Shown one piece after another: positions 1 to 27,143 of a stretch of 64,000 nt of DNA. Source of the stretch: Escherichia coli (GTDB lineage Bacteria > Pseudomonadota > Gammaproteobacteria > Enterobacterales > Enterobacteriaceae); assembly GCF_024223415.1 (NCBI RefSeq), contig NZ_CP100500.1; one strand, given 5' to 3'. A program made the translations under genes and the position numbers. The notes under the pieces are model-generated. The model made no database searches, was not told where the DNA came from, and worked only from the letters and a program-made list of their open reading frames with translations. The first letter of the stretch is position 1, and each line of letters begins with the position of its first letter.

Positions 1-240
1 AGAGCTGCTTCAGTGCCAAGCTGATATTGCTCCTCGAGGTCGCATTCCTTCCCGGCAATGTTAACCGCTGTTTGAGTCGCCTGTGACGCTTCTTCAAGTA
101 TATGATTGATATTGTTGGCGGCATATCTCGCTCCCGCCAGGTACTCTGCTTTTGCGGAATACCAGAGCTGGATGTTCAAAATAGCGACACCGGTTATAAA
201 CAAGCATATCGCAACGATGATGGGTATGAGAGTATTGCGC
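1..240 (-). CDS. 5' fragment of a membrane-anchored protein, probably the ycgG/pdeG-like c-di-GMP phosphodiesterase; gene runs off the window start
   Basis: Minus-strand ATG at 238-240 opens a frame that continues past position 1 (MRNTLIPIIVAICLFITGVAILNIQLWYSAKAEY..., N-terminal TM helix). Position after ymgC fits K-12 synteny. Confidence 0.4.
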
Positions 241-577
241 ATTTGCTTGTCCCGGCCAAAGGGTTTAATACATGAAAATGACGTTCATTCGCTCGCGCTG
301 GCGTCTACAGAGAGCATGGTAGAGAGCATCACAAATATCCACGCCGAAGATAAAATTTTCTCCATCTTCATCTAACCTATTAATTATTGAGCACAATGTA
401 GGCAGAATTAAACAAATTAGGTGGGATATCAGGCGTCAAGAATGGAAAACGAGCGCTCTCCATTCCTGTTTGCCCCCTGATATTGCGGATATATTAAGAA
501 AGCATAACGCCTGAAATGCTCACTTTGCACCAGCATGATGATACAGCTGATGTTTATTCTATAACCTTACTCAAGTT

Positions 578-826
578 CTAAGAGAGCACGGATTCCCTGT
601 CATTAATAATGATATCCGTTAGTGTAGTCTTATGCATTTCAATGTACTGCAAGATTTGCAGATAGAGATCAGAAAGAATCACACTGGTTTCATCTTTTAA
701 ACGCAAGCGTAAAGCCTGATCAATAATATGACTATCAACATACCCATGCGTCATGAACACCTCCCTCTCGAGATTTTTAAACAAAGCACATTGAAAAATA
801 AATCTCTCTGGGATTGAATTATTCAT
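578..826 (-). CDS. ymgC: YmgC, small protein of the ycgZ-ymgABC biofilm/acid-stress operon
   Basis: 82-aa ORF, length and sequence consistent with E. coli YmgC; last gene of a four-gene minus-strand cluster divergent from bluF. Confidence 0.8.
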   Translation of the reverse strand: MNNSIPERFIFQCALFKNLEREVFMTHGYVDSHIIDQALRLRLKDETSVILSDLYLQILQYIEMHKTTLTDIIINDRESVLS

Positions 827-938
827 GTCAGCCTCGTAGAAATATTAACCCAATAAAATTATGCTGTGTATAGTCTAAAGCGACAGACAAAAATAAGATG
901 AATGAGTTTTCTATAAACTTATACTTAATAATTAAAAG

Positions 939-1205
939 TTACATGTCATCCGCTGTGTATCGCAACACGATTTCCAGTGTTTTTCTGATCACATCAGCTT
1001 TGAGAATATCACTTGTTGTTTCCAGGGAGTGTATCAGACTTAAGATAATATTTTTATTATTAACATTATCGCCTGAAAGCATTAAATTAGTCACAGCCTG
1101 CCCTAACACTGCTGACTCTTCTTCTAACAAATTACCCGAACTGCGAAAGTAACTTGATAACGCTTTATCAGTTATTGCATTATGAATTGTAGTATCTTCA
1201 AGCAT
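939..1205 (-). CDS. ariR: AriR (YmgB), regulator of acid resistance / biofilm
   Basis: 88-aa ORF matching AriR in length and synteny. Confidence 0.8.
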
Positions 1206-1233
1206 GGTAACCTCTCATCTTACTTATGAAATT

Positions 1234-1506
1234 TTAATGTATTCTGTTTATTTTCTTACCATTGAACATACTTTTATTGTCAGCTATCGCTGTTCTTCGG
1301 TTTGGCCCTCCTGTATCACTGTTGCTAAAATCACGAATTATGCTGTCAATTAAATCTCGTCGGAAAGCATTTTCCTCAGCCGATTTCATTACGAGTAATT
1401 GCTTAATAAGAGTCTGCACCGAAAAATTTATCTTCATGCGCAGTATCTGGAGCACCGCCTGGCCAGTAATTTCATATTTTATACTTTCATTATCAGATGT
1501 CTTCAT
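1234..1506 (-). CDS. ymgA: YmgA, RcsB connector protein
   Basis: 90-aa ORF matching YmgA in length and synteny. Confidence 0.75.
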   Translation of the reverse strand: MKTSDNESIKYEITGQAVLQILRMKINFSVQTLIKQLLVMKSAEENAFRRDLIDSIIRDFSNSDTGGPNRRTAIADNKSMFNGKKINRIH

Positions 1507-1548
1507 AACGACTTCATAGCTAACCTGTTAAATAATCAGGCTGTTGCA

Positions 1549-1785
1549 TTATTCAAAAAGCAACCCAATTAGTGCATTATAATGTTTCTGTTCCTCTTCC
1601 CCTGTCGCTTGTTCCAGTCGGCAAAGAAGTTTGGCACAAAGCGACTTTCGACTCAGATTACGTCCATCTTTCAAAATCTCAGTCACAATTTCCCCGAGAG
1701 TTTCCTGCTGAGTAGGCAAGTTAGCTTTTGCAAAGTAACGAGTGATTGCTCCCGCAGAATCTAAAGTCACTGAATTTTGATGCAT
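1549..1785 (-). CDS. ycgZ: YcgZ, small regulatory protein
   Basis: 78-aa ORF, first gene of the cluster divergent from bluF. Confidence 0.75.
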   Translation of the reverse strand: MHQNSVTLDSAGAITRYFAKANLPTQQETLGEIVTEILKDGRNLSRKSLCAKLLCRLEQATGEEEQKHYNALIGLLFE

Positions 1786-2098
1786 GCTACGCCTCTGTTA
1801 AAAATGTTAATCAATGTTAAGTGAGGTAACAATAGTAAACTTGTACGAAATATGTGTACAGAATGATAAATTAATTTTTTGCAATTAGTGCTAATGCATA
1901 TAAAACAATACGTTATGATAAAACATATTGCATCATTTAACTGACAACCTATACAAAAATTTTCGCCAACTCATGTTCAACTTTTTCCATTTTTTATCAA
2001 TGTAAAGAAACAGTTATGTTTTGGTATTAAAAGAAAGACACCGGAAGATATGTCTGTTACCGTCTTACTCTCGCCTCTCCCATTACCCTGGACAGTTA

Positions 2099-3310
2099 AT
2101 GCTTACCACCCTTATTTATCGTAGCCATATACGTGACGACGAACCTGTCAAAAAAATCGAAGAAATGGTTTCGATAGCAAATCGCAGGAACATGCAGTCT
2201 GACGTAACAGGGATCTTACTGTTTAATTGTTCTCATTTTTTCCAGCTTCTGGAAGGTCCGGAAGAACAGGTTAAAATGATATATCGGGCTATATGCCAGG
2301 CTCCACGGCACTATAATATTGTTGAGCTGCTGTGCGATTACGCGCCTGCTCGCCGTTTTGGCAAAGCGGGAATGGAATTATTTGATTTACGCCTGCACGA
2401 GCGAGATGACGTTTTACAGGCCGTATTCGACAAAGGCACATCAAAATTTCAGCTAACTTATGATGACAGAGCGCTACAATTTTTTCGTACTTTTGTCCTT
2501 GCAACCGAACAATCAACCTATTTCGAGATTCCTGCTGAAGACTCCTGGCTTTTTATCGCTGACGGATCTGATAAAGAACTTGATTCCTGTACCCTTTCAC
2601 CAAATATAAACAACCACTTTGCCTTTCATCCTATTGTTGATCCCTTATCGCGGCGGATAATCGCTTTTGAAGCCATTGTGCAAAAAAATGAAGACAGCCC
2701 GTCAGCTATAGCGGTTGGGCAGCGTAAAGACGGGGAAATCTACACAGCGGATCTCAAAAGTAAGGCGCTTGTATTCGCGATGGCACACGCACTTGAGCTC
2801 GGTGATAAAATGATATCAATCAATCTATTACCTATGACCCTGGTTAACGAGCCTGACGCAGTCTCTTTTTTACTTGATGAAATAAAGGCCAATGGTCTGG
2901 TGCCTGAACAAATCATCGTTGAATTTACTGAAAGTGAAGTCATATCTCGGTTTGATGAGTTTGCCGAAGCGGTTAAATCGCTAAAGGCTGCCGGTATCAG
3001 TGTAGCAATTGATCATTTTGGCGCAGGTTTTGCTGGTTTGTTACTCCTGTCACGCTTCCAGCCTGACAGAATTAAAATCAGTCAGGAATTGATTACCAAT
3101 GTTCATAAAAGCGGACCACGGCAGGCAATTATTCAGGCGATCATAAAATGCTGTACATCACTTGAAATTCAAGTCTCTGCTATGGGCGTGGCAACACCAG
3201 AAGAGTGGATGTGGCTTGAATCCGCAGGAATTGAGATGTTTCAGGGGGATCTGTTTGCTAAAGCTAAATTGAATGGTATCCCTTCCATAGCGTGGCCAGA
3301 AAAAAAATAA
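2099..3310 (+). CDS. bluF: BluF (YcgF), blue-light sensor with BLUF and degenerate EAL domains
   Basis: Internal ATG of ORF 2021-3310 gives the canonical 403 aa starting MLTTLIYRSHIRDDEP; BLUF-type N-terminus and EAL-like C-terminus. Confidence 0.9.
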   Translation: MLTTLIYRSHIRDDEPVKKIEEMVSIANRRNMQSDVTGILLFNCSHFFQLLEGPEEQVKMIYRAICQAPRHYNIVELLCDYAPARRFGKAGMELFDLRLHERDDVLQAVFDKGTSKFQLTYDDRALQFFRTFVLATEQSTYFEIPAEDSWLFIADGSDKELDSCTLSPNINNHFAFHPIVDPLSRRIIAFEAIVQKNEDSPSAIAVGQRKDGEIYTADLKSKALVFAMAHALELGDKMISINLLPMTLVNEPDAVSFLLDEIKANGLVPEQIIVEFTESEVISRFDEFAEAVKSLKAAGISVAIDHFGAGFAGLLLLSRFQPDRIKISQELITNVHKSGPRQAIIQAIIKCCTSLEIQVSAMGVATPEEWMWLESAGIEMFQGDLFAKAKLNGIPSIAWPEKK

Positions 3311-3505
3311 TTTTCAGCACATGATTTCATGTAAATCATCGTGAAAATGAATACGTTATGTTTAAATTTAATCCACATTAAAAATAATGTTTCATCCAAA
3401 TTAGCTGAAATCTTATTTATACTTTGTACAATTTTAGCGTATATTGTACAAAGTATTATTGGGTCGTGTACAGGCGACGGAGATTTATGACCGCAAGGAG
3501 GAATT

Positions 3506-5121: not shown

Positions 5122-5423
5122 TTTTGGTTTAGTCATCATCCAGTTATATGTATTTTAGCCAGGAACAGGTTAAACCTTTCCTATATAATTCAAAAATTGA
5201 AACCTTATTCTCATGTCATGCTTATATTCATTATTATCGTTATATAAAAAGGCAACCATAATGTTTAGCAAATTGGCACAAAGTAGCATAAAGGCTATGT
5301 TTTAATTACAGGATGGTCAGTCATTTGAATGTATAACATTATAGCTAAACAAATCTAAAACGAAGTGAATAATTTATTGTTTTCACTAAATCTCATTTTG
5401 TTTAAAATCCATTGAGATTCTTT

Positions 5424-5440
5424 GCTTTAAATTTTGTTTT
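5424..5440 (+). promoter_or_regulatory. Possible PhoP-box-like direct repeat upstream of iraM
   Basis: gcttta-N5-tgtttt resembles the (T/G)GTTTA-N5-(T/G)GTTTA PhoP box; iraM is a known PhoP target. Weak match. Confidence 0.25.
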
Positions 5441-5557
5441 ATATAAGCAATCGTTTTAATTAATTTATTTTTTGAAGGGGTAATATACTCATATGCAAAA
5501 TAAAGAAATGAACATCCAAATGAACTATATTAAATACCGTGGGATAAGACATAACAA

Positions 5558-5881
5558 ATGAAGTGGGTAGTAATTGACACGGTAATTCAACCTACATGCG
5601 GCATATCTTTTTCAGCCATATGGGGTGATATGAAAATGATTATCTGGTATCAATCTACTATATTTCTTCCTCCTGGAAGTATATTTACACTGGTTAAGCC
5701 TGGTATTATCCTTAAGGATAAAGAATATCCTATAACTATTTATAACATTGCACCATTCAACAAGAATTTATGGAGTTTACTCAAAAGCAGTCAAGAGTGT
5801 CCTCCAGGAGAAAGCGAAATAACAAATAAATGTTTGCATAAGAGTTGTATTATAAAAATATGCCCATATGGGCTCAAGTAA
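5558..5881 (+). CDS. iraM: IraM, anti-adaptor protein stabilising RpoS
   Basis: 107 aa, [23 protein letters not shown]...; AT-rich gene with AT-rich upstream region. Confidence 0.8.
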
Positions 5882-5931
5882 TGGGTTTTATATAAATATG
5901 CTCGATATGCTATTAATAATATCCACATAAA

Positions 5932-5978
5932 TAAAACAACGGGCGTGTTATACGCCCGTTTAAATATTTAACACATGT
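5932..5978 (-). terminator. icd intrinsic terminator (hairpin plus T-rich tail on the minus strand); repeat copy B
   Basis: Stem aacgggcg/cgcccgtt immediately 3' of the icd stop, followed on the minus strand by a T-rich run. Confidence 0.6.
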
Positions 5979-5983
5979 AGTGA

Positions 5984-7234
5984 TTACATATTTTTGATGA
6001 TCGCATCACCAAACTCTGAACATTTCAGCAGTTTAGCGCCTTCCATCAGACGTTCGAAGTCATAGGTTACGGTCTTCGCATTGATTGCGCCTTCCATACC
6101 TTTAACAATCAGGTCTGCGGCTTCGGTCCAACCCATGTGGCGTAACATCATCTCAGCAGAGAGAATAATAGAACCTGGGTTAACTTTGTCCTGACCGGCA
6201 TATTTCGGCGCAGTACCGTGGGTGGCTTCAAACAGGGCGCATTCGTCACCGATGTTTGCACCAGGGGCGATACCGATACCGCCAACCTGCGCTGCCAGGG
6301 CGTCAGAAATGTAGTCACCGTTCAGGTTCATACAGGCGATAACATCATATTCAGCCGGACGCAGCAGGATCTGTTGCAGGAATGCATCAGCAATCACGTC
6401 TTTAATGACGATCTCTTTGCCGGTATTCGGGTTTTTAACTTTCAGCCACGGGCCGCCGTCGATCAGTTCACCGCCAAATTCTTCACGCGCCAGCTGGTAG
6501 CCCCAGTCTTTAAACGCGCCTTCGGTGAACTTCATGATGTTGCCTTTGTGCACCAGGGTCACAGAGTCACGATCGTTAGCAATTGCGTATTCGATCGCTG
6601 CACGAACCAGACGTTTGGTGCCTTCTTCAGAACACGGCTTAATACCGATACCGCAATGTTCCGGGAAGCGAATTTTCTTCACGCCCATCTCTTCACGCAG
6701 GAATTTAATCACTTTCTCGGCGTCGGCAGAGTCTGCTTTCCATTCGATACCCGCATAAATGTCTTCCGAGTTTTCACGGAAGATAACCATATCGGTCAGT
6801 TCAGGGTGTTTAACCGGGCTTGGAGTGCCCTGATAGTAACGTACCGGACGCAGGCAGATGTAGAGATCCAGTTCCTGGCGCAGGGCAACGTTCAGAGAGC
6901 GAATACCGCCACCAACAGGAGTGGTCAGCGGACCTTTAATGGCAACGCGATATTCACGAATCAGATCAAGGGTTTCAGCAGGCAGCCAGACATCCTGACC
7001 ATAAACCTGTGTGGATTTTTCACCGGTGTAAATTTCCATCCAGGAGATTTTACGCTCGCCTTTATAGGCTTTCTCGACTGCAGCGTCGACCACTTTCAGC
7101 ATGGCTGGGGTTACATCTACACCGATTCCATCACCTTCAATGTAAGGGATAATCGGATTTTCAGGAACGTTGAGTTTGCCGTTTTGCAGGGTGATCTTCT
7201 TGCCTTGTGCCGGAACAACTACTTTACTTTCCAT
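5984..7234 (-). CDS. icd: Isocitrate dehydrogenase (NADP), intact 3' end
   Basis: 416 aa, full-length, [38 protein letters not shown]... Confidence 0.95.
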
Positions 7235-7405
7235 TCACCTCTCCTTCGAGCGCTACTGGTTTGCTCGTCTGCCACCACGTTGCATATGCGTTTGCGTCCT
7301 GCGATACGGATGCTTTAGAGCAATTTTTTGTTAATGATTTGTAATTGGCTTGTCAATACTACCCTATTGTTTGCCGTCATGAAAGATGCGCGTTATTAGG
7401 CTATA

Positions 7406-8059
7406 ATGCGGCAATTCATAATCTCTGAAAATACCATGCAAAAAACTTCTTTTAGAAATCACCAGGTTAAGCGATTCAGCTCGCAACGTTCTACCAGGCG
7501 TAAACCTGAAAACCAGCCCACGCGTGTGATCCTGTTCAATAAACCCTACGATGTTCTTCCGCAGTTCACCGATGAAGCCGGACGCAAAACATTAAAAGAA
7601 TTCATCCCGGTTCAGGGCGTTTATGCAGCAGGTCGTCTTGACAGAGATAGCGAAGGGTTATTGGTGCTGACCAATAATGGTGCACTACAGGCGCGTTTAA
7701 CCCAGCCAGGCAAACGCACTGGAAAAATCTATTATGTGCAGGTGGAAGGCATTCCCACACAAGACGCACTTGAAGCCTTGCGCAATGGCGTAACCTTAAA
7801 TGATGGCCCTACCCTGCCCGCCGGCGCGGAGCTGGTTGACGAACCCGCGTGGTTATGGCCGCGGAATCCACCAATTCGTGAACGCAAAAGTATTCCCACC
7901 AGCTGGCTGAAAATCACCTTATATGAAGGACGTAATCGCCAGGTGCGCCGCATGACCGCCCATGTTGGTTTCCCCACGCTGCGACTGATTCGTTATGCGA
8001 TGGGTGATTACACTTTGGATAATCTTGCTAATGGCGAATGGCGAGAAGTGACAGATTAA
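7406..8059 (+). CDS. rluE: 23S rRNA pseudouridine synthase RluE
   Basis: 217 aa; RluA/RsuA-type motifs; position between icd and nudJ. Confidence 0.8.
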
Positions 8060-12581: not shown

Positions 12582-14041
12582 TGAAAAAATTACTGCGTCT
12601 TTTTTTCCCGCTCTCGCTGCGGGTACGTTTTCTGTTGGCAACGGCAGCGGTAGTACTGGTGCTTTCGCTTGCCTACGGAATGGTCGCGCTGATCGGTTAT
12701 AGCGTCAGTTTCGATAAAACTACGTTTCGGCTGTTACGTGGCGAGAGCAATCTGTTCTATACCCTTGCGAAGTGGGAAAACAATAAGTTGCATGTCGAGT
12801 TACCCGAAAATATCGACAAGCAAAGCCCCACCATGACGCTAATTTATGATGAGAACGGGCAGCTTTTATGGGCGCAACGTGACGTGCCCTGGCTGATGAA
12901 GATGATCCAGCCTGACTGGCTGAAATCGAATGGTTTTCATGAAATTGAAGCGGATGTTAACGATACCAGCCTCTTGCTGAGTGGAGATCATTCAATACAG
13001 CAACAGTTGCAGGAAGTGCGGGAAGATGATGACGACGCGGAGATGACCCACTCGGTGGCGGTAAACGTCTACCCGGCAACATCGCGGATGCCAAAGTTAA
13101 CCATTGTGGTGGTGGATACCATTCCGGTGGAGCTAAAAAGTTCCTATATGGTCTGGAGCTGGTTTATCTATGTGCTCTCAGCCAATCTGCTGTTAGTGAT
13201 CCCGCTGCTGTGGGTCGCCGCCTGGTGGAGTTTACGCCCCATCGAAGCCCTGGCAAAAGAAGTCCGCGAACTGGAAGAACATAACCGCGAATTGCTCAAT
13301 CCAGCCACAACGCGAGAACTGACCAGTCTGGTACGAAACCTGAACCGATTGTTAAAAAGCGAACGCGAACGTTACGACAAATACCGTACAACGCTCACCG
13401 ACCTGACCCATAGTCTGAAAACGCCACTGGCGGTGCTGCAAAGTACGCTGCGTTCTCTGCGTAGTGAAAAGATGAGCGTCAGTGATGCTGAACCGGTAAT
13501 GCTGGAGCAAATCAGCCGCATTTCACAGCAAATTGGCTACTACCTGCATCGTGCCAGTATGCGCGGCGGGACATTGCTCAGCCGCGAGCTGCATCCGGTC
13601 GCCCCACTGCTGGACAATCTCACCTCGGCGCTGAACAAAGTGTATCAACGCAAAGGGGTCAATATCTCTCTCGATATTTCGCCAGAGATCAGCTTTGTCG
13701 GTGAGCAGAACGATTTTGTCGAGGTGATGGGCAATGTGCTGGATAATGCCTGTAAATATTGCCTCGAGTTTGTCGAAATTTCTGCAAGGCAAACCGACGA
13801 GCATCTCTATATTGTGGTCGAGGATGATGGACCCGGTATTCCATTAAGCAAGCGAGAGGTCATTTTCGACCGTGGTCAACGGGTTGATACTTTACGCCCT
13901 GGGCAAGGTGTGGGGCTGGCGGTAGCCCGCGAAATCACCGAGCAATATGAGGGTAAAATCGTCGCCGGAGAGAGCATGCTGGGCGGTGCGCGGATGGAGG
14001 TGATTTTTGGTCGCCAGCATTCTGCGCCGAAAGATGAATAA
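12581..14041 (+). CDS. phoQ: Sensor histidine kinase PhoQ
   Basis: 486 aa; start overlaps phoP stop (ATGA); TM-periplasmic-HAMP-HisKA-ATPase layout. Confidence 0.95.
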
Positions 14042-14049
14042 ATATGTCC
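14039..14049. repeat. Left copy of short direct repeat taaatatgtcc overlapping the phoQ stop codon; candidate attL core
   Basis: 10-bp perfect match aaatatgtcc with 29402-29411 (13/15 over tgaataaatatgtcc vs tgataaaatatgtcc). Confidence 0.5.
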
Positions 14050-14121
14050 TTTTATCACCGATATTAGTTAATATATTGATTTAATTAAAAATATACACAA
14101 ACAAAAGTGCCAAAAATCGCA

Positions 14122-14147
14122 AATTAACTACACCATTAACTACACCG
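14122..14147. repeat. Inner 26-bp direct repeat aattaactacaccattaactacaccg, left copy (two tandem 13-mers); alternative att core
   Basis: Exact 26/26 match to 29252-29277; followed on both sides by similar phased repeat arrays. Confidence 0.8.
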
Positions 14148-14163
14148 TTCGGCGCACTGTATG

Positions 14164-14189
14164 AAACAACGTGGAACAAATAGGCACAA
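14164..14189 (+). promoter_or_regulatory. 10-bp-phased NNACAA direct repeats (AAACAA, GAACAA, GCACAA); putative recombinase/RDF or regulator binding array
   Basis: Motifs start at 14164, 14174, 14184; same family as arrays at 21838, 27909 and 29284. Confidence 0.4.
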
Positions 14190-14366
14190 GAAATATAAAG
14201 GCGGGTAATTTTAAGGGGGCGTTGCTGTCGATATGGGGATCCACATAACGGGGCTACCTGGCTTTTTTTCCGGTTAAATGTCAATCAGGCTGGTGGGCTT
14301 TACCTGTTCGGTAGGTGTTATGATTATCGTAATACCTTTCCCCCAATGGGGTAAAAGCATCAACCG

Positions 14367-14911
14367 TAACGAAAGTCGTTATGGTTGCCACCGATACTCC
14401 AAATTTGGGTATCACGAGTAAGCCCCAAAATCTGGGTGTTACTCTTACTACCCAAACTACGGGTAGTTTCCGTAGTTTCATGGTCGAGTTGCAGATCTGC
14501 AACTCCCCCATCAACCACAGGCGAATTTCCGCCTTCGGTCATTCCTTAATCATCTGCGTAATCATAATGATTATTCAGCCAGCTCAATTTTGAGCTTTGC
14601 TTTAAGTTCAGCGAGTTACCGCGCCGACTTCCTCAAATTGAGGTTTCCGAAAATATCAGTGGGTTAGCGATTAAGCAGATGGATAATTAACCTGCGAAAA
14701 TTTCGCAGGTTACATCAGCGACGTAATTCTCGCTGTTCCTGCCCGGAGGTGTCGACGAATTTCGTCGGAACCTAAGCCTGCCGGGAAGTCCGTACGTTAA
14801 ACGTACGGAGTTAATTCGACATCACACACTACGTTGTCAATTTGCAAAGGAGGGGCGGAAATCACCATACCTGCCACCCTGTCATACAGAAAGGGATTAC
14901 GATAATCGTAA
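14367..14911. repeat. Palindrome-dense noncoding block (at least eight perfect or near-perfect inverted repeats of 13-21 bp)
   Basis: Palindromes at 14367-14381, 14454-14478, 14486-14505, 14581-14596, 14631-14643, 14691-14709, 14752-14766, 14789-14809, 14897-14911; no convincing ORF. Confidence 0.6.
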
Positions 14912-14987
14912 CAGGATACAACGCCGCCTGTAATCGTAACCAATTGATTTTTATGATGACGCAAATCTGCGTTATCAGTCCTCAAAG

Positions 14988-15278
14988 TTACCGCCGCAAC
15001 CGTTCCGGCTTCTTCCACTGATAAGTGTTTTTCGCGCTCTCCTGATACATCGCCACGCGTCGACGGTATGCCAGCAACTCTAGTACTCTGATTCGTATGT
15101 CGCGCATATCCACGCCGTTAAGCTCAATACCGTCACGGCGCATCACCTCCGCCACAACACGCACATAATTTTCGGCGGTCACGCTGTCCGGCTGCGTGGC
15201 CTGTTCGTCATGCTGCTGGCTGATTCCGGTAACGCGGCGGATTAATCCCAGTAGTTCGGCTTCGCTCATTCTCGTCAT
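14988..15278 (-). CDS. Hypothetical protein (96 aa) downstream of terL
   Basis: ORF start overlaps the terL stop (translational coupling geometry); no recognisable motif. Confidence 0.4.
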   Translation of the reverse strand: MTRMSEAELLGLIRRVTGISQQHDEQATQPDSVTAENYVRVVAEVMRRDGIELNGVDMRDIRIRVLELLAYRRRVAMYQESAKNTYQWKKPERLRR

Positions 15279-16936
15279 ACCCCATCAAACGCCGCAAGCC
15301 GCTCTTTGTGGCTGTCGCTCATATCGAATGCAAATTCCTCATGCTCTGCCTGGAATGTGCCAAACGCCATCAGCGCCGCAACGCTCGGGTCTATCTTGTT
15401 GGATGATTTTTTCTTGTTCGGCTTGATATTGGCGTTCGCGTCACTCTGCATCACAACATTACTCATTGACCAGGCCAGCACCGGATCACCACGATGCACA
15501 ATCACCTTCCGGTTAACAAAAACTTCGAACGATTTCGCCGCCGGACTGAAACGAAGGTATGTTTGCGGGAACGGCTCCACCTCAAATCCTGCGCCCTGTA
15601 GCTGCGTCATCAGGTGCGTGGCGTTCCATGTATCGAAGCCCACCAGCCGGATATTAAAATTTTCCGCGTCCTTCATGATGTCATCCCTGATACGGTCGTA
15701 ATCAATACAGTCGCCTGGCGTTGTGCGTATCCAGCCCGATTTTGCCCACTGGCGATAGATGGCGCGGTTTTTATTGGCGGGATTCTGTAGCTGCTGCTCC
15801 GGCAGATAATGACGGGAAACCAGCATGATGGTTTTACCAACCGGAAAGGCATAACACACGCTTGAAATATCATTTGTTGATGATAAATCCAGCCCCGCAT
15901 AGCACTCCTGCCCGTGTAAATCTTCCTCCGTGAACGTTCCGGCACACTCAGCCCATGCACCGTTACCCATCCACGGCGTAGCCCCCTGACACCAGATATT
16001 AAAGCGCTTTGTCATCATCTCCACCCACTGCGACGGAATACCCCGCGCTTTCTGGATGGTTGAGGCAAGTTTTTCACGATCGACGGAAACATCGATATTG
16101 GGATTCGCCTTTATCCACATCGCCGGATCGTCAACCTCGCTTTCATCATCCAGCTCGTAAATCATCACGAACATGGATTCATTAACCTCTTCACCATCCA
16201 GTATCTGACAGCAATAATCATAGTGCTGCTTACAGGCAGAAATAACGTTGCTTCCCGATGTGGTAATGGCGAATAACAGCCCGTCAGGACGCGCACCCAT
16301 CCCAAGTTCAAGCGCGGAATATACGCCGTTATCGGGGTGTAAATGGTATTCATCCACAATGGCAAGACTCGGGTTTGTCCCCTCAATGGTCGCCGCCTTT
16401 GCCGCCAGTGGCTTTAACAGGCTGTTGGTTTTCGGGTGTATCACCTTGTGCGCCTGAATATTTACCCGCTTTCGTAACGGTCGGGATAAAAGGCACATCT
16501 GACGCGCATCATCAAACACGATCCGCGCCTGATCACGACTCACGGCGGCGGTGTAAATATCCTGCTGCCCGTTTTCCATAACCAGAAACCAGTTAGCCAG
16601 GATAGCGGCGACCGTGGATTTGGCATTTTTTCGCGGTACTTCAATGAATGCGCTGGTGTATTTGCGCCGTCCGGTGGACTTAACCTTAAAGCCCAGGATG
16701 CACGCAAAGGCGAACTGCTGCCACGGCTCCAGTTCAATGGGGCTACCGCGCATTGCACCTTTTACGTGCGGGCACACCCTGGAAAAGGCAATAAACCGCT
16801 CCACGACCTCCGGATCGAACGTGTAAAGGGGGTTTTCAAGGTCAGAAAAATACCGTTTAACAGCCTGTTTCAGTCGTTTACAGGCCGTAATTTTGCCGTT
16901 TTTTACGCCTTCTGCGTACTCATGCCAGGCGGTCAA
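15275..16936 (-). CDS. terL: Terminase large subunit
   Basis: 553 aa; N-terminal ATPase region with P-loop-like PRKNAKST, C-terminal nuclease-like region; follows terS. Confidence 0.85.
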   Translation of the reverse strand: MTAWHEYAEGVKNGKITACKRLKQAVKRYFSDLENPLYTFDPEVVERFIAFSRVCPHVKGAMRGSPIELEPWQQFAFACILGFKVKSTGRRKYTSAFIEVPRKNAKSTVAAILANWFLVMENGQQDIYTAAVSRDQARIVFDDARQMCLLSRPLRKRVNIQAHKVIHPKTNSLLKPLAAKAATIEGTNPSLAIVDEYHLHPDNGVYSALELGMGARPDGLLFAITTSGSNVISACKQHYDYCCQILDGEEVNESMFVMIYELDDESEVDDPAMWIKANPNIDVSVDREKLASTIQKARGIPSQWVEMMTKRFNIWCQGATPWMGNGAWAECAGTFTEEDLHGQECYAGLDLSSTNDISSVCYAFPVGKTIMLVSRHYLPEQQLQNPANKNRAIYRQWAKSGWIRTTPGDCIDYDRIRDDIMKDAENFNIRLVGFDTWNATHLMTQLQGAGFEVEPFPQTYLRFSPAAKSFEVFVNRKVIVHRGDPVLAWSMSNVVMQSDANANIKPNKKKSSNKIDPSVAALMAFGTFQAEHEEFAFDMSDSHKERLAAFDGV

Positions 16937-17276
16937 GCTCGTCCTCTTCCTCTGTTTCCGGTGGATTTCTGCGTCGGCTTACCGGGTCAAAACCCAGCAA
17001 AGAAGCCATTTTGATCATTATTCTTTCTGCGTCAGCCTTTGCGCTCAGGGCGGGGTTTCTGCTCTCGCTGCCCTGACTGTTAACAATGCTGAACCCGCGC
17101 GTCGCAAGGTCTTCGACGGCTTTGCGGTATAGGGAGTAGTTAACGCAATACAGCTCAAGATTGCTCCAGTCGGCGGGGGTAAGGTCTTCCCGCCCGGAAA
17201 GCTGGCGCGATTTTTCCTTCCATTGCCTGACGGCAATTTCATCCAGGTAAGCGGGGGCTTTTGGTGGTCTTGCCAT
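16920..17276 (-). CDS. terS: Terminase small subunit (P27-family-like)
   Basis: Starts MARPPKAPAYLDEIAVRQWKE...; short basic N-terminus typical of P27-type TerS; overlaps the terL start. Confidence 0.6.
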   Translation of the reverse strand: MARPPKAPAYLDEIAVRQWKEKSRQLSGREDLTPADWSNLELYCVNYSLYRKAVEDLATRGFSIVNSQGSESRNPALSAKADAERIMIKMASLLGFDPVSRRRNPPETEEEDELDRLA

Positions 17277-17321
17277 GTTCTTTTTTCGCCCAATTATTTT
17301 CAAAAAAATTCCCGTGCACAA

Positions 17322-17565
17322 AAATTTGAGCAGGCGGTCGGTTCTGGGCAGGGTCGGGTTCGTCCTGAAAACTCCCCCCCACCCCGTCCGGCTGCCTCAT
17401 CAGCGATTGCGAAAACATTCCATGACCTCGCGGTCACGGTCGGTTAATCGCTTCGCTGTGGTGCGTTTTGTGCGCCCTGTCCTGTTGGCTTTGTGCTCTG
17501 TCTCCTGTGTCTTCCATGTGTCACGCTGCCTTATCAGTCCACGTATCAGCCTGGTTTGCTCCTGT
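17322..17565. other. Candidate cos/packaging site in the HNH-terS intergenic gap
   Basis: 244-bp noncoding gap with G-rich and C-rich tracts (ggcggtcggttctgggcagggtcggg, actcccccccacccc) at the position where HK97-like cos sites lie. Confidence 0.3.
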
Positions 17566-18006
17566 TCAGTCATCATCGCCATACATCCAGTCGTTACGGT
17601 GTGCCGCCCGTTCTTCCTGCTCGCGATACATGCCCGCTTTACGGTTTGCTTTCGTGGCTGGATCTTCCCGTGTGGTCTTACGGTTGTGGCACGTCTGGCA
17701 CAATGCCTGGTGATTCCACTCAGGCCAGAAGAGAACATCATTACCGCCATCGATGGGGATAATGTGATCCACCACCACGGCGGGCGTGTATATTCCTTTT
17801 TCCAGGCAATGCGCACATAACGGGTTTTTACTCAGGTACATAGCGCGGTATTTCTCCCACTGCCTCGTATACCCTCGCTCCCTGCTGCTGCCTCTCCGGC
17901 TGTCCTGCTGCTGGCGTGCGCTGCGTCTGTGCTCCTCACACTTCCCGGACTTCACGCGCCTGTTGCAGCCTGGTTGTGTGCATCGTCTCAATGGTTGCCA
18001 CGGCAT
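17566..18006 (-). CDS. HNH endonuclease (packaging-associated)
   Basis: 146 aa with Cys-His motif (CAHCLEKG...DHIIPIDGGND...ALCQTCHNRKT); sits next to terS as in HK97-like cos phages. Confidence 0.75.
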   Translation of the reverse strand: MPWQPLRRCTQPGCNRRVKSGKCEEHRRSARQQQDSRRGSSRERGYTRQWEKYRAMYLSKNPLCAHCLEKGIYTPAVVVDHIIPIDGGNDVLFWPEWNHQALCQTCHNRKTTREDPATKANRKAGMYREQEERAAHRNDWMYGDDD

Positions 18007-18302
18007 CAGTACACCCCCACATCACGATAAACCGACCAGAGCGCGGAAATCGTCAGGGGAATTTCTTTTGTATCGGTATCGCCAAGCGTTGTCCGGTACT
18101 CGTACAGTTGCGAGATGTACATCAGGCAACCAATTTTTATTGCAGGGGTAAATTCCAGGCCGTCATCAAAACGCCTGCCAATATGCTTCTGGCATACCTC
18201 CAGCGCCGCGCTTATGTATGCCTGAATCAGTGTGTCTTCTGTGTTACCATCTATGCGGCAGTGAAGTTTGGCCTCTTCCAGGGTTATTTTTTCTGCTGTC
18301 AT
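18006..18302 (-). CDS. Head-tail connector protein (gp6-like)
   Basis: 98 aa, MTAEKITLEEAKLHCRIDGNTEDTLIQAYISAALE... typical of phage gp6-like connectors. Confidence 0.55.
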   Translation of the reverse strand: MTAEKITLEEAKLHCRIDGNTEDTLIQAYISAALEVCQKHIGRRFDDGLEFTPAIKIGCLMYISQLYEYRTTLGDTDTKEIPLTISALWSVYRDVGVY

Positions 18303-18637
18303 TTTTCTGTACCCACCTTTGCCAGAATTTCCAGCCGGGTTCTTTTCGCATCAGGTAAGGGGATCCCGATGATATTAAGCGTGCTCCCGGCAAAAGCGCC
18401 GGTAAGCACTTTCAGGCGACTGGCGGCGGATATGTCGCCACGATAGCGAACCCATACCCGAATCGTTGCAGGTGCGGTTTCTGCGCCTGCGGTCAGTAAT
18501 TCCCGTCCGCTGATCCCCTTGACCTCTGCCCAGATGGTTTCCCCTTCCGTCCATATCTGCTGGATCGCACCTGACGGCAGGCGCTGTGTGGTAAATGTCA
18601 TAATCGTCACCCGGTCCCGCATCTTTCCGGCTATCAT
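18299..18637 (-). CDS. Head closure / head-tail adaptor protein
   Basis: 112 aa; size and position (after portal, before HNH) fit the head-tail joining family. Confidence 0.5.
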   Translation of the reverse strand: MIAGKMRDRVTIMTFTTQRLPSGAIQQIWTEGETIWAEVKGISGRELLTAGAETAPATIRVWVRYRGDISAASRLKVLTGAFAGSTLNIIGIPLPDAKRTRLEILAKVGTEK

Positions 18638-19851
18638 TCGTCACCGCCCTTACTGTTCTTGCTGATTGTCACTTCCTGCTTCCATGCCTGGCTGAACTCG
18701 TCGCCACCTTCACGCGGCGGCATTCCCTCACGCTCACGGGCTTCGTTCGGATTGATGATCCCGTTCTTAATCCCTTTCTCATACGTGGCGTAACGTTCGG
18801 TAGGGGTGGCGCGTAATAAATCGGCTGAATCAAACTCAACCAGATAACGGGTACCAGGTACGGGAGAAGCCACCAGCAAAGCAGCCTTGATTTGCTGTTC
18901 GAAGTTCGCCAGCCACGGGCGCATTGTCATGGTCAGAAACGCGCGGCTTGCCTCACTGAAATTGCTGTAGGTGCTGTTGCTGTATTCCTGCAAAAAAATC
19001 GGCGAGACGTTGAACATTCGGGCGATGTCTTCAATGGTAAAGCGACGGGAGGCCAGCCATTCAGCATCCTGATTACTCATGCCCAGCTGCTGATAGCTCA
19101 TACCCCCTTCAAGGATGGGCGTTTTTCCGGCGTTTCTGGCCCCTTTGTAGCGTTCCAGTGCGGCTAATGCCTGTTTGCCCTTCACGCCGTCCAGCCATTC
19201 GCCTGACGTGATAACCCCTGCCGCCATCATGCCATCACGCATCACGCTCGCGCCGTGGCGTTGTTGGGCCAGCCCAAGCCCCAGCGATTCGCGGCAGATG
19301 GTTACAGGTGAGCGCCCCATAAAGCCGTCATCCGTGGAGTAACGAAGGTGGAGAACCTCCCACGGTAAATAGTTGCGGGTGTTTCCGGTGTAGGCGTCAG
19401 TGATGCAGTAGCGCCAGTTATGCTCACCTGTCTGCTCCACGTTCACCGACTGCGGCGGGTAAGGATGTAAAGCCACCGGAAAACCATCACGCCCCCACTG
19501 AATAACCGCATAAGCATTACCGTTTAACAGGCAGTGGCGGATCATCATTCGCTTAAACTGGTAGGGGGTTTGCCATGCGTTCGGGCGCTCGTTGAGGATG
19601 TGATCGACCGGATGAGAATCAAGCCACTCGCGGGCCTCCTTCCCCTTCTCATTGCGTACCAGGTACAGGTAACACGGCATGGTAGCCACCGCCTCAGAGA
19701 TGACCGTCACGGCGTTCATGACGGCGGGCAGTGATTCCGCTGTCCCCGATGATACGTACTCACCCGCCCCCGTGTTCGATGTGCCCGCCAGCGCCATAAA
19801 TTCATCAAGCGTCATGCTGCGCTGCTCTTTTTTTCTTCTGAAAAGCCACAT
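18634..19851 (-). CDS. Portal protein (HK97 family-like)
   Basis: 405 aa; position between protease and connectors; composition typical of HK97-type portal. Confidence 0.8.
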   Translation of the reverse strand: MWLFRRKKEQRSMTLDEFMALAGTSNTGAGEYVSSGTAESLPAVMNAVTVISEAVATMPCYLYLVRNEKGKEAREWLDSHPVDHILNERPNAWQTPYQFKRMMIRHCLLNGNAYAVIQWGRDGFPVALHPYPPQSVNVEQTGEHNWRYCITDAYTGNTRNYLPWEVLHLRYSTDDGFMGRSPVTICRESLGLGLAQQRHGASVMRDGMMAAGVITSGEWLDGVKGKQALAALERYKGARNAGKTPILEGGMSYQQLGMSNQDAEWLASRRFTIEDIARMFNVSPIFLQEYSNSTYSNFSEASRAFLTMTMRPWLANFEQQIKAALLVASPVPGTRYLVEFDSADLLRATPTERYATYEKGIKNGIINPNEAREREGMPPREGGDEFSQAWKQEVTISKNSKGGDE

Positions 19852-19852
19852 A

Positions 19853-20425
19853 TCACACCCCCGCTAAATCCACCCACCAGCGGCGATTATCCGCACGCGG
19901 CATTTTTTCGGGGTGCTGCTCATACAGGGAACGGCGGGCCAGCTCCACGCCGGAATCGGGGTAAGCCGGTACCGATGTAACGGTAATTTCGTACAGTTCC
20001 GCCACCAGCACGGTACGAACGCATGGATCTGTTGTGGTATCCCATACATCCTTACGGGAGCGAAAGCCAAAGCTCATGCCGGATATATCACCGCGTTTAA
20101 CCAGTTCGATAACGTCGCGCCCTGTACTGGTATCCGGTGGGGTCAGTTCAAAGCGTAACCCTGTTTCGTCCTCTTCCAGTTTCAGCGTGCCGGAACGGGT
20201 GCGCCCCAGTAACATGCTGTGGTCATGCTCATACAGGCCGCGAACGTCATTACCCGCCGCAAGCCATTCAGTAAACGCCCCCCGCTGGAATTTTTCGTAA
20301 AACTCACCCCATAACAGTTCTGAAAGCTTATCCCAGCGAACAACGTAGCCCGTCAGCGTACCGGCTCCGCTCGTGGTGATTTCCGATGACCGGATTTCCA
20401 TACTCTTCATAATTTTTTCACCCAT
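19853..20425 (-). CDS. Prohead maturation protease (HK97 gp4-like)
   Basis: 190 aa immediately downstream of the capsid gene. Confidence 0.75.
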   Translation of the reverse strand: MGEKIMKSMEIRSSEITTSGAGTLTGYVVRWDKLSELLWGEFYEKFQRGAFTEWLAAGNDVRGLYEHDHSMLLGRTRSGTLKLEEDETGLRFELTPPDTSTGRDVIELVKRGDISGMSFGFRSRKDVWDTTTDPCVRTVLVAELYEITVTSVPAYPDSGVELARRSLYEQHPEKMPRADNRRWWVDLAGV

Positions 20426-20464
20426 AAAACACTAAAGGGGCTTTTAAGCCCCTTCTGTATGCTG

Positions 20465-21622
20465 TTAATCGTCGTCCTGTGGCAGTTCCAGAATCTTGAT
20501 CGCGTTCGAATCCACCACGCCACCGCCTAAATATTTCTGCGTGAAAATTTTGATGAAGCCCGGCTCTGTGATGTTGTCCGGTCTGGTGCGAACACCTGTT
20601 TCGTGATCAACAATGTAGTAACCGCGTTTGAAGTCACCCAGGGCAATAACGTTATCAGGCATAAACTCCAGATATTCGACCGGAAGGCCCAGCAACGTAT
20701 CAGGATCACCCGCCTGTAAACGGTCGCGCCAGATGTAATCACCGTTCGCGTTCTTCACCTTCTGAAGTTTTGCCGCCGTTGTGGAGTTAACCACCCATAC
20801 CGCGTTCTTGCGGTATTTTTTACGCAATGCAAATTTCAGGTCGATCAGCGGGTCCGCAGATGTCCACGCCAGACCGTGAGCGGGCTTGATAACCTGCAAC
20901 GTTCCGAAGTCGCGTTCTTTGTCGCTCTTCTCTGCACGGGGGACGGATAAAAAGCCTTTTGCTTTTTTGTCACCGTCGCCCACAACCAGATCGCTTTCTT
21001 CGGTTTCCGTGAAGGTGTCGCCAATCTCGGCCGTCAGCCATGAAAGGATGTCCACATCGGAAAAATCCACGATTTCCTGTGTGGTGCGCGGGTACGCATA
21101 GACCGGATACAGCTTAATGCTCACCTCGTTAATCTGCGGGGTGCTGGTCTGTTCGCGTGCCTTACCCTCTTCACCGTGGTTAACGGTCGCACCGCCAGCG
21201 GAAACAAGCTGCTTAAACTCGTTGCTGCTGATTTTCTTCACGGTACAGATGCGGCGCATGGTGGATTCATCCGCCAGCATTCGCATGATTTCGGTGTTCA
21301 GTTCGGGGATAACGGTATAACCACCATCAGCGGGAACGCCTGTACTTAATGCGCGGGTTTCACCTGTCAGAATGTAGTTGCGTAGTTCTGCGGGGTCAGT
21401 GGTCTGACTGCTTTTACCTGGCTTGCTGCGCTCTTCGTCTGCAATGGCTTCAAGGCGGGAAATGTCTTTATCGAGGGATTCAGCTTTAGCGCGTAATTCA
21501 TCAAATTTTGCGCCCTCAGCATCGTTAAGACTGCGGTTTTCTTTTTCCGCGTTCTCCAGCATGTCGCGCATCTGATTTTTAATGGCGGTTTTCTGCTGGC
21601 GTAATTCGATTATTCTCGGCAT
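20465..21622 (-). CDS. Major capsid protein, HK97 fold, with N-terminal coiled-coil scaffold (delta) domain
   Basis: ATG at 21622 gives MPRIIELRQQKTAIKNQMRDMLENAE... (delta domain) then capsid body; the longer ORF to 21667 would read through a terminator hairpin. Confidence 0.85.
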   Translation of the reverse strand: MPRIIELRQQKTAIKNQMRDMLENAEKENRSLNDAEGAKFDELRAKAESLDKDISRLEAIADEERSKPGKSSQTTDPAELRNYILTGETRALSTGVPADGGYTVIPELNTEIMRMLADESTMRRICTVKKISSNEFKQLVSAGGATVNHGEEGKAREQTSTPQINEVSIKLYPVYAYPRTTQEIVDFSDVDILSWLTAEIGDTFTETEESDLVVGDGDKKAKGFLSVPRAEKSDKERDFGTLQVIKPAHGLAWTSADPLIDLKFALRKKYRKNAVWVVNSTTAAKLQKVKNANGDYIWRDRLQAGDPDTLLGLPVEYLEFMPDNVIALGDFKRGYYIVDHETGVRTRPDNITEPGFIKIFTQKYLGGGVVDSNAIKILELPQDDD

Positions 21623-21660
21623 AAAAAAAAGTCCTGGGGTTAAGTAAGGAACTCCAGGAC
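21623..21660 (-). terminator. Intrinsic terminator on the minus strand directly abutting the capsid start codon
   Basis: Minus strand reads gtcctgg-(16 nt)-ccaggac followed by TTTTTTTT, then ATG of the capsid gene. Confidence 0.45.
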
Positions 21661-21837
21661 GCGGCAAAAACTCAACCGTTTTTCATAAGGAAATCAGCAA
21701 TCGCACCGATCGTTTTCCCGCCTGGTAATGAATATTGGCGAGCACATTAACAGGCGGGAAAGTGGCCCCAGCGTCCTGGCACCACGGGCGAGAATAATCA
21801 TGATTCAGTTCGAGTAAAATATGCCGATCCGCTCAGT

Positions 21838-21896
21838 GAACAACCTGGAACAACCACGAACAAATAATTTACAAAACCTGAAAAAATAAATAAACT
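21838..21896 (+). promoter_or_regulatory. Promoter of the 157-aa gene with phased upstream repeats: GAACAA x3 at 10-bp spacing, then -35 TTTACA, 17-bp spacer, -10 TAAACT
   Basis: GAACAA at 21838, 21848, 21858; TTTACA 21868-21873; TAAACT 21891-21896; AGGAGG SD at 21924 and ATG at 21938. Confidence 0.45.
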
Positions 21897-21937
21897 GTTC
21901 CGTACATTTTCTGCTCGTTAATCAGGAGGAACGAACT

Positions 21938-22411
21938 ATGTCAGAAAATGAACTGAAAAAAGCAATGTTCATTCAGCAACGATTGCAGATTCTCCACCTT
22001 GGTAAACACTATGATGAGTTCAGTGATTCTTACGTGTATGCCTGGGAGGCAGATGTTTATCCTTTCTTGCAGGATGGCGACGGAAGTATTCCTGCTCGCC
22101 CACATGAAATTTACGAAGAGTTTTTCGGCACATCTAAAAACAAAGCCAAAAAGATATACGATCGTCTGTGCAAAGCCTGGCACGACCAGGAGGCACTCAC
22201 ATTCTATAAACTAGAAAGTGAATATGGTGTAACAAGTAGCAGCATGCACAGATGGACACGAAGTGATTTACTTCACATCTGCCGCTATCTGTATCTTGAG
22301 GGGTGTTTCGATAAAGATTTCTGGGAAACATTACTGGAAAACGGAAAATGCCCAAGCGAAGCACTTTACCTTAGCGATGAATTTAATCGCGATACAGAGA
22401 TCGACTTCTAA
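21938..22411 (+). CDS. Hypothetical protein (157 aa), stand-alone opposite-strand cargo gene
   Basis: Strong SD and promoter, own bidirectional terminator; only plus-strand gene inside the structural/regulatory part of the island; no recognisable domain. Confidence 0.65.
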   Translation: MSENELKKAMFIQQRLQILHLGKHYDEFSDSYVYAWEADVYPFLQDGDGSIPARPHEIYEEFFGTSKNKAKKIYDRLCKAWHDQEALTFYKLESEYGVTSSSMHRWTRSDLLHICRYLYLEGCFDKDFWETLLENGKCPSEALYLSDEFNRDTEIDF

Positions 22412-22448
22412 AAAAATGGCCTGGAAAATACCAGGCCATTATTATTCT
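22411..22448. terminator. Bidirectional intrinsic terminator between convergent genes
   Basis: atggcctgg-aaaata-ccaggccat flanked by an A-run on one side and T-rich sequence on the other. Confidence 0.55.
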
Positions 22449-22695
22449 ACCGTTTCACGGGATCACGCATTCTGCGCCTTATTTTCCACAGATATTCGAT
22501 CATCGCTTCCACCTGCTCACGGTTGGTTGCGAAAATTTCCCCGGTCAGTGAGCTACGCAGAAAATCATGATGATCCACAAAAAATAACGCATCGGAAGAA
22601 AGCAGCCGGAGATATTTTTTTGCTGTCGTGCTTTCCAGATCATCAAAATCATGAAGCTTTTTATGTTGCTGGACTTCTTCAAATGTCACTGGCAT
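22447..22695 (-). CDS. Hypothetical protein (about 82 aa)
   Basis: Internal ATG (MPVTFEEVQQHKKLHDF...) downstream of the PerC-like gene. Confidence 0.45.
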   Translation of the reverse strand: MPVTFEEVQQHKKLHDFDDLESTTAKKYLRLLSSDALFFVDHHDFLRSSLTGEIFATNREQVEAMIEYLWKIRRRMRDPVKR

Positions 22696-22740
22696 GTTTC
22701 CTCCTGCTACCACGATACCAGAAACAGTTAACAACCGTTA

Positions 22741-23022
22741 TCAATTATCCCCTTTTTTAGGGTAGTTCCTGAACATCTCACCGCCAGGCTTCTGTAAGCC
22801 CATCCCGGTATGTGTGCGGTTTATGGCCTCTTTCAGTATTCCGAAATTATCCGGTATGACTGGTGGGCGTGCTGCCTTACGGATACATTCCGCGCGACGC
22901 TTTGCCACTTGTTCGCGCTCCTTGTCAGTGCTCACCAGCCACATAACATCAGCCCATCGCGCGGCCGCCCTCCGGTAAAATCCTTTCGCCTCCAGTTCCT
23001 CCGCTATCCGGTCATGTACCAT
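22741..23022 (-). CDS. PerC-family-like transcriptional regulator (tentative)
   Basis: About 93 aa from internal ATG: MVHDRIAEELEAKGFYRRAAARWADVMW...; the EAxGxxRRAAxxW motif resembles PerC-type activators. Confidence 0.4.
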   Translation of the reverse strand: MVHDRIAEELEAKGFYRRAAARWADVMWLVSTDKEREQVAKRRAECIRKAARPPVIPDNFGILKEAINRTHTGMGLQKPGGEMFRNYPKKGDN

Positions 23023-23032
23023 CGTCACCCCC

Positions 23033-23443
23033 TCAGAACGGAATATCATCACCGTAAGGGTCATCGCCTCCCGCTGGTGGCTGATTACCCTGTGTGCCTG
23101 TGGTTTTGCGTCTGTTCCCACCAGGACGTGCCGCACGCGCACTGATTACGCTGTCTGCGATAACCTGCCAGCCCTGCCGCGTTTCCCCGTTCTGTCCGGT
23201 CCACTGGCTGACCTGCATCGTGCCGGATACGCTGGCAACGTCGCCTTTTTGATGTTTAGCCAGAAAGTCGGCCTGTTTGCCAAATGCGATGACCGATAAC
23301 CATAACGTCGCCTGTCCGTCCTGTGCCTGGCCGCATGGTAAAGATACCGCCATACGCGCCAGCGTCATCGGTGTACCCTTACTGGTCTGTTTTACCTGCG
23401 GGTCGTCCACCAGCCGCCCGTAAGCTGCAATTTGTGCTGTCAT
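23033..23443 (-). CDS. ssb: Single-stranded DNA-binding protein
   Basis: 136 aa with OB-fold-like core and acidic C-terminal tail ending DDIPF. Confidence 0.85.
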   Translation of the reverse strand: MTAQIAAYGRLVDDPQVKQTSKGTPMTLARMAVSLPCGQAQDGQATLWLSVIAFGKQADFLAKHQKGDVASVSGTMQVSQWTGQNGETRQGWQVIADSVISARAARPGGNRRKTTGTQGNQPPAGGDDPYGDDIPF

Positions 23444-23452
23444 ATTGCCACC

Positions 23453-23758
23453 TCAGTGAAGCGATCCGGCGTTGTTCTTTTTCATCTCTTCCATCATTTT
23501 TTCAGTGAGCATTACGCACTGAAAACCCATGTTTTTGATGTCTACGGGTTTCATGCCTTTGTCAGTGGATATCACAGGCAGAATATCCTGATACACATCG
23601 CCGCCAGGGTAACTAAGCACACAAAGCGCCCATGATGCCACGGGTGAGGATCCTTGGTCTGTTTCAACCCACCAGCCTGGTGTAGCTGCGCTTATTTGCA
23701 GAATCGTGATCCGTCCGTTGTGCTTGTAAAATTTTTCACCACATTTTGGTTCGCTCAT
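23453..23758 (-). CDS. Hypothetical protein (101 aa)
   Basis: ORF in operon context between ssb and the ori region. Confidence 0.4.
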   Translation of the reverse strand: MSEPKCGEKFYKHNGRITILQISAATPGWWVETDQGSSPVASWALCVLSYPGGDVYQDILPVISTDKGMKPVDIKNMGFQCVMLTEKMMEEMKKNNAGSLH

Positions 23759-25898: not shown

Positions 25899-25903
25899 TA
25901 TTT

Positions 25904-26137: not shown

Positions 26138-26138
26138 A

Positions 26139-27110: not shown

Positions 27111-27143
27111 TAGCCCACCAGCAAGCCAGGACACTGATCACAT

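Follow-up and report, generated by a model that had tools for sequence, protein, structure and literature searches.

In Escherichia coli K-12, the 3' end of icd is occupied by the e14 element. The stretch of E. coli DNA analysed here, 64 kb in length and referred to as the window in the following, carries icd in close vicinity of iraM. The locus raises the question of whether the site used by e14 is empty in this strain and, if so, where the strongly divergent end of the gene comes from.

icd, its terminator and the junction with iraM

The gene for NADP-dependent isocitrate dehydrogenase, icd (5984-7234, minus strand), is present as a reading frame of 416 codons plus stop without any interruption, as judged from the list of open reading frames (ORFs) and from the translation, and it encodes an intact protein of 416 aa. 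A terminator scan revealed a terminator-like hairpin that begins 24 nt past the icd stop codon. This intrinsic-terminator hairpin (5938-5960, minus strand) features a 9-bp stem with six GC pairs followed by GTTTTATTTA, and the 71 nt around it yield an RNA fold of -21.7 kcal/mol (z = -3.2 versus shuffles). The next gene, iraM (5558-5881, plus strand), is convergent with icd and encodes the anti-adaptor protein with a length of 107 aa, as derived from its translation and from the annotation of matching records. Nothing lies between hairpin and iraM. The initial annotation had described a full-length icd with an uninterrupted 3' end and a terminator directly followed by iraM; both statements agree with the translated 416-aa reading frame and with the positions of hairpin and iraM, and 5925-7234 is the correct span for icd including its terminator.

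The spacer between icd and iraM (5882-5983) comprises 102 nt and is collinear throughout with the icdC-iraM spacer of K-12; a remnant of any element was not found in it by the three-way alignment with K-12. On its other side, icd is neighbored by rluE (7406-8059, plus strand), which is transcribed divergently and was identified from the ORF list and the annotation of matching records. Over the 2,151 nt from 5300 to 7450, 20 E. coli records match at 99% or more, with O78 strain 3 at the top (99.9%). In this top match, YmgK, iraM, icd and rluE are annotated and no gene intervenes. An alignment of icd and the 350 nt downstream did not reveal a single base differing from the O78 strain 3 copy.

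On the protein level, K-12 and window differ by D398E and E414K. E414K was considered as a novel enzyme variant and this was ruled out, as icd of the window is identical to that of O78 strain 3, the product of which is annotated as WP_000444487.1. The same protein is annotated in C41(DE3), JX21CE8, deer strain 48 and DJH_137urine. The ORF list also contains a 366-codon ORF (6218-7318, plus strand) that runs antisense to the conserved icd coding sequence over its whole length and is probably a by-product of the icd coding strand.

Absence of e14

In the annotation of K-12 MG1655, the cryptic prophage e14 begins at icd nt 1087 and ends immediately ahead of the icdC pseudogene (165 nt), with iraM as the next gene. 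The location of e14 in the icd 3' end of K-12, on which the initial annotation had built, is in accordance with this. The order in K-12 icd::e14 is thus attL icd tail, e14, attR icdC and iraM, and e14 accounts for the 15.2 kb that separate icd nt 1086 from icdC. The flanking genes are the same in the window, which is without the element. Past the icd stop codon, the window aligns with the icdC-iraM side of K-12 in the three-way alignment and not with the left end of e14, and if e14 is notionally excised, window and K-12 are collinear on the icdC-iraM side. The tail supplied by e14 (K-12 attL) is not the one present in icd of the window, from which it differs at 13 of 165 positions within the tail and at 16 of 53 past the stop codon; the respective number for icdC is 12 of 165.

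When the 15-kb interior of e14 was compared with the 64-kb window by blastn, no match was obtained. A tblastn comparison of 23 e14 products with the window returned a sole match, between part of the terminase YmfN and the TerL protein of the island described below, with 30% identity. We rejected this match as a relic of e14 and attribute it to generic homology within the terminase family, the island being unrelated. The e14 genes intE, xisE, lit, pinE, mcrA and the ymf genes are absent next to icd, as concluded from the blastn and tblastn comparisons with the window. Neither a second icd fragment nor icdC occurs in the window, where the only blastn match to icd at word size 7 is the gene in question. 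The initial annotation had declared e14 missing and had named e14-derived sequence or an icd pseudogene copy in the window as findings that would speak against this. Both were looked for and neither was detected, so that its claim holds for the e14 attachment site and for the 64-kb window.

Alignment of the icd 3' region with K-12 and with strains free of e14, which had been suggested as a check, yielded the empty-site arrangement of e14-free genomes. B strains such as C41(DE3) and also O78 strain 3 share the gene order ymgK-iraM-icd-rluE and the 102-nt spacer with the window. The last approximately 200 nt of icd vary between lineages, with seven differences from the window in the tail of C41(DE3) and twelve in that of the e14-free strain H2. 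The observation of an empty site is a statement of synteny relative to reference genomes, and the question of whether it occurs more often than by chance is not applicable.

The island downstream of phoQ

The window is collinear with both K-12 and O78 strain 3 apart from an insertion of 15,352 bp between phoQ and roxA (14050-29401, minus strand), which was delimited by the break of synteny with these two genomes and characterized with PHROGs and Pfam. Direct repeats of 10 bp, AAATATGTCC, are located at 14040-14049 and 29402-29411, the left one overlapping the phoQ stop codon, and both phoQ (486 aa) and roxA are intact. The island starts 6.8 kb away from the icd site and directly past the phoQ stop, in line with the earlier mention of a different mobile element about 7 kb off at phoQ.

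The island encodes a tyrosine integrase (28001-29251), a repressor-like protein (26582-27385) and a RepA/AAA_25 helicase (24208-25614), and further products are a DUF4222 protein, a single-stranded DNA-binding protein (SSB) and PerC. A capsid and packaging set consists of major capsid protein, prohead protease, portal, head closure protein Hc1, head-tail adaptor Ad1, HNH nuclease, TerS and TerL, with matches to phrog_10, 80, 12, 40 (Ad1), 25 (Hc1), 144 (HNH), 83 (TerS) and 9 (TerL). No match to a tail, lysis or holin family was obtained among the 20 island ORFs scanned, a set that did not include all ORFs under 60 aa. Capsid-forming satellites of the cfPICI type have been defined by gene set and size (PMC10085698). 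In agreement with this definition, the island has a size of about 15 kb, carries integrase, regulator and replication genes at one end, possesses its own capsid and packaging genes (capsid, protease, portal, adaptor/connector, HNH, TerS, TerL) and lacks recognizable tail and holin genes. It deviates from the definition in featuring a RepA-type AAA_25 helicase, SSB and PerC, whereas an AlpA or primase domain was not identified by the scans run. The best match in E. coli has 96.5% identity over 93% of the query, and related islands at a coverage of at least 80% are present in 22 genomes, some of the matches taking in the phoQ and roxA flanks. Judged by its gene content, the island is predicted to be a tail-less, capsid-encoding, cfPICI-like satellite and not a prophage. 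It is unrelated to e14.

The surroundings offer some further observations. At the beginning of the window (1-3400), the ycgZ-ymgA-ariR-ymgC/bluF region upstream of bluR is kept. In the matching region of O78 strain 3 (L002, 14057-18100), ycgH is truncated and an ISKpn26 element (IS5-like) is present. As the bluF/ycgZ region differs in this way, the strain from which the window stems is not O78 strain 3. Only about 25 nt separate cobB and potD (around 36116-36142) in the window and likewise in O78 strain 3, while K-12 has ycfZ and ymfA at this place (about 1.3 kb).

The icd attachment site and the phages that use it

Phages of the e14/21 type integrate by tyrosine-integrase recombination close to icd nt 1087. 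Since they bring along their own version of the final 165 nt of icd and of the terminator, icd stays intact in the lysogen, while the native tail is displaced to a position next to iraM and forms the icdC pseudogene, equivalent to attR. Excision by Int and Xis brings the native tail back. Excision of e14 has indeed been found to restore icd via icdC (bioRxiv 10.64898/2026.06.14.732165; PMC6379469), and the phage 21 site in icd is used by further lambdoid prophages (PMC12803456). The window represents the state without any integration event, in which icd continues through its own tail and terminator to iraM.

Phages that use the icd site carry icd from nt 1087 or 1093 to nt 1251 plus approximately 53 nt with the terminator, and arm-type sites, int and xis follow. 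A copy of this part of icd next to int is found in phage 21 (OL657228), ev017, the 21-like prophage of ECOR38 (AF017626), O157:H7 (Z1832) and a prophage remnant in DJH_137urine. Together with NC-SV of strain NC101, these represent phage 21-type icd prophages that use the same attB as that of the window; they have integrase and excisionase past the terminator where the window has iraM. Correspondingly, 21-type integrase and excisionase genes directly follow icd in occupied genomes. In the window, the segment that is duplicated in attP of e14/21-type phages consists of the last 165 nt of the icd coding sequence and 53 nt with the terminator (5931-6148, minus strand), and the phage matches span exactly this segment, the icd tail.

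The 5' edge of attB was located by aligning the window with attL and attR of K-12, attL and attR of DJH_137urine and attP of phage 21 and ev017. In this alignment of attB, attL, attR and attP sites the shared att sequence starts at ATG(Y)T(R)CGCCA(Y)ATGGG, corresponding to 6148-6128 of the window. The putative edge (6128-6148, minus strand) thus reads ATGTTACGCCACATGGGTTGG, the exact crossover point being inferred. Both att sites (attL and attR) of the DJH_137urine 21-type remnant have this same sequence, and K-12 and phage 21 deviate from it at synonymous positions only. The attB variant of the window is ATGTTACGCCAC as compared to ATGCTGCGCCAC in K-12, and we expect it to be integration-competent. 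Every testable defining feature of an unoccupied icd attB is found at this locus, namely a full-length icd, no phage DNA on its 3' side, no icdC nearby and the shared att sequence. Nothing that we found contradicts the reading as an empty site. Scans of the whole window with Rfam at gathering threshold and for tRNAs did not return any match, and accordingly neither a C0293-like sRNA nor a tRNA att site is present.

The remnant in DJH_137urine (L014, 37027-48422) is an 11-kb decayed prophage of the 21 type that resides between icd and icdC. The genes int, xis and exo and a fragment of bet are retained, accompanied by IS1 and an mcrBC-like restriction system. The remnant can be described as a grounded prophage whose defence cargo is analogous to mcrA in e14.

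Occurrence of the empty site in E. coli

Among the complete genomes of E. coli, 5,426 in total, icd and iraM are contiguous in approximately 3,018 (about 56%). A left e14 junction as in K-12 is present in 283 of the 5,426 (5%), in 280 of them with at least 99% identity, and the genomes concerned are mostly K-12 derivatives. A phage-21-type tail with integrase adjoins icd in 1,624 genomes (30%). The empty icd site is therefore the modal state in E. coli, with K-12 as the exception, and an intact icd abutting iraM is ordinary and already known. As e14 is essentially a peculiarity of K-12, its absence does not say anything special about the strain.

Variability of the icd tail

While the arrangement is ordinary, the tail of icd deviates strongly from K-12. 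The first 1,086 nt of the gene contain 17 differences (1.6%), twelve of them in nt 1-1040 (about 1.2%) and five in nt 1041-1086, as compared to 13 in the last 165 nt (7.9%). The divergence of the tail exceeds that of nt 1-1040 with p = 4e-6 to 6e-6 in Fisher's exact test. Over the complete 218 nt, the tail differs at 15 positions from the ancestral copy in K-12, icdC, and from strain H2. The best match in the phage collection is AF017626, a record with icd tail and integrase of the 21-like prophage in strain EC38 (ECOR38), from which the tail differs at only three of 218 positions (98.6% identity). The prophage copy of ECOR38 has the base of the window at 13 of the 15 sites that separate the window from icdC and H2. 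This resemblance ends exactly at the end of the attP homology, beyond which the native iraM flank follows. Identity of the tail to ev017 and 4A7, both virion-derived, amounts to about 96-97% (seven to eight differences in 212 nt) and identity to phage 21 to 93.4%.

Similar tails are not confined to phages. The tails of the unoccupied strains JX21CE8, ECNB21-M121 and deer strain 48 exhibit three differences from that of the window, equal to the ECOR38 prophage copy. In DJH_137urine, the phage-side copy differs from the window tail at three positions and the displaced host-side (attR) copy at six. A 207-nt query covering the tail of the coding sequence (5984-6190) matched 22 records with at least 99%, 1,013 with 95-99% and 4,379 with 90-95% identity.

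Elevated divergence was also noted outside the tail. Compared with H2 and a notionally cured K-12, the values are 11% for icd nt 1041-1086, 7.3% for the tail, 5.7% for the terminator, about 5% for iraM and 4.6-5.8% upstream of iraM. K-12 and H2 differ from the window at five synonymous sites in the segment corresponding to icd nt 1041-1086 (6149-6194). The five sites are grouped within 25 nt immediately on the upstream side of the edge of e14/21 homology, and O157:H7 Z1832 has the version of the window in this part. iraM and its flanks (5558-5881 and upstream to about 4800) differ by approximately 4-6% from K-12, H2 and C41(DE3), as compared to about 1.2% for the first 1,040 nt of icd. The raised diversity beside this prophage hotspot hence reaches past the segment that is duplicated by the phages.

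Phage D2 carries a longer piece of icd (nt 968-1251) with host-type sequence. At least two lengths of the icd tail therefore exist among phages, and the D2 fragment points to icd-integrating phages of a second class, whose crossover would be situated further upstream.

The polymorphism of the icd tail and its connection with prophages of the 21/e14 type have been known since the 1990s. Wang, Whittam and Selander reportedly described a replacement polymorphism of the icd 3' end in natural E. coli in 1997 (J Bacteriol 179:6551), in which substitutions are said to accumulate in the final 165 nt of the gene and to match prophage-borne copies. AF017626 is presumably the GenBank record of that study. 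The pattern in the window is of the same kind and adds one more strain, here at an empty site; it differs in that divergence is also raised upstream of nt 1087 and into iraM.

Origin of the icd tail

The data support the view that the icd tail of the window is one variant of a hypervariable, mosaic pool common to hosts and icd-integrating phages, and its similarity to phage copies fits the known exchange of icd tails between the two. In our opinion, 5931-6148 is thus very probably best explained as an unoccupied attB of e14/phage-21-type lambdoid phages, with a tail drawn from this shared pool, most likely via prophage traffic. The tail may have reached the lineage by homologous recombination or gene conversion between a phage-borne and the resident tail with subsequent loss of the prophage. 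Alternatively, a phage-type tail allele may have been imported from another strain. The description of the icd 3' end as uninterrupted is therefore adequate for the intact reading frame and does not extend to an untouched 3' end, as the tail belongs to a hypervariable class exchanged with phages.

We considered the excess divergence of the tail as proof of a phage footprint and downgraded this argument, since divergence is also elevated in iraM and ahead of nt 1087 and since window-like tails occur on the host side. Because of these host-side tails, the divergence beyond the 218 nt and the host-type tail of phage D2, a footprint is not claimed outright. Instead of replacement of the tail, recombination at the locus or deep allelic lineages may account for part of the divergence.

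Other explanations have to be weighed against the unoccupied attB with a tail from the shared pool. That e14 is present in the strain and integrated outside the window appears highly improbable. Nothing in the window favours it apart from the logical limit of a 64-kb view, icd is the only e14 site seen here (in the K-12 annotation and in all 283 genomes with an e14 junction), this site is empty in the window, and the genomes closest by icd locus, O78 strain 3 and others, are likewise empty. A different proposal is that the tail is the fossil of a 21-like lysogeny and that a recent ancestor lost the prophage by a mechanism that did not involve Int/Xis. RecA-dependent deletion between the distal ends of the duplicated tails, or gene conversion followed by excision, would both leave a phage-type tail joined to the native iraM flank. 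The similarity to the phage copy does stop exactly at the end of the attP homology with the native flank thereafter, and the tail is closer to the copies in ECOR38 (3/218 differences, with the base of the window at 13 of the 15 sites that differ in icdC and H2) and in ev017 and 4A7 (7-8/212) than to icdC (15/218). With 21-type prophages in icd of 1,624 genomes, exposure should be frequent, and the 11-kb remnant in DJH_137urine demonstrates that such prophages decay in place. We nevertheless regard this course of events as rather unlikely, given that tails are no less similar in other unoccupied strains and in one host-side attR copy, that divergence is found outside the phage-homologous segment, in iraM and upstream of nt 1087, and that phage D2 with its host-type icd nt 968-1251 shows that phages capture host tails, which renders the direction of transfer ambiguous. 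The sample on which this comparison is based comprises about a dozen loci.

The very tails that weaken the fossil scenario, those at the empty sites of JX21CE8, ECNB21-M121 and deer strain 48 and the attR copy of DJH_137urine, would be expected if the site had never been occupied in the lineage, the tail were a native allele and phages had copied their tails from related strains. Lineages also differ by about 5% in the adjoining iraM region, and the tails of phages are as diverse as those of hosts (92-98.6% identity). This scenario is conceivable, yet we do not consider it the probable one: simple vertical descent does not readily account for 7% divergence in the tail and 11% in the adjoining upstream segment when the remainder of icd diverges by about 1.2%, and the window tail is rare, with only 22 records at 99% or above. 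An unoccupied attB whose tail was drawn from the pool shared by hosts and phages remains our preferred explanation.

Implications

The annotation of the locus as icd, terminator, iraM and unoccupied attB can be considered confident. The icd locus does not hold anything new, given that an empty site is found in most E. coli genomes and that the polymorphism of the tail is already known. The neighboring 15.4-kb element past phoQ should be annotated as a putative capsid-forming satellite and not as a prophage. Phylogeny or MLST-style inference should not rely uncritically on the last approximately 200 nt of icd, because the segment is exchanged with prophages. Should the tail indeed be the fossil of a 21-like lysogeny, the C-terminus of a core enzyme of the TCA cycle, including residue 414 (Lys instead of the Glu in K-12), would be phage-derived without any prophage being present at the site. 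Such a phage-derived C-terminus of isocitrate dehydrogenase would constitute one more case of a phenomenon that has already been described.
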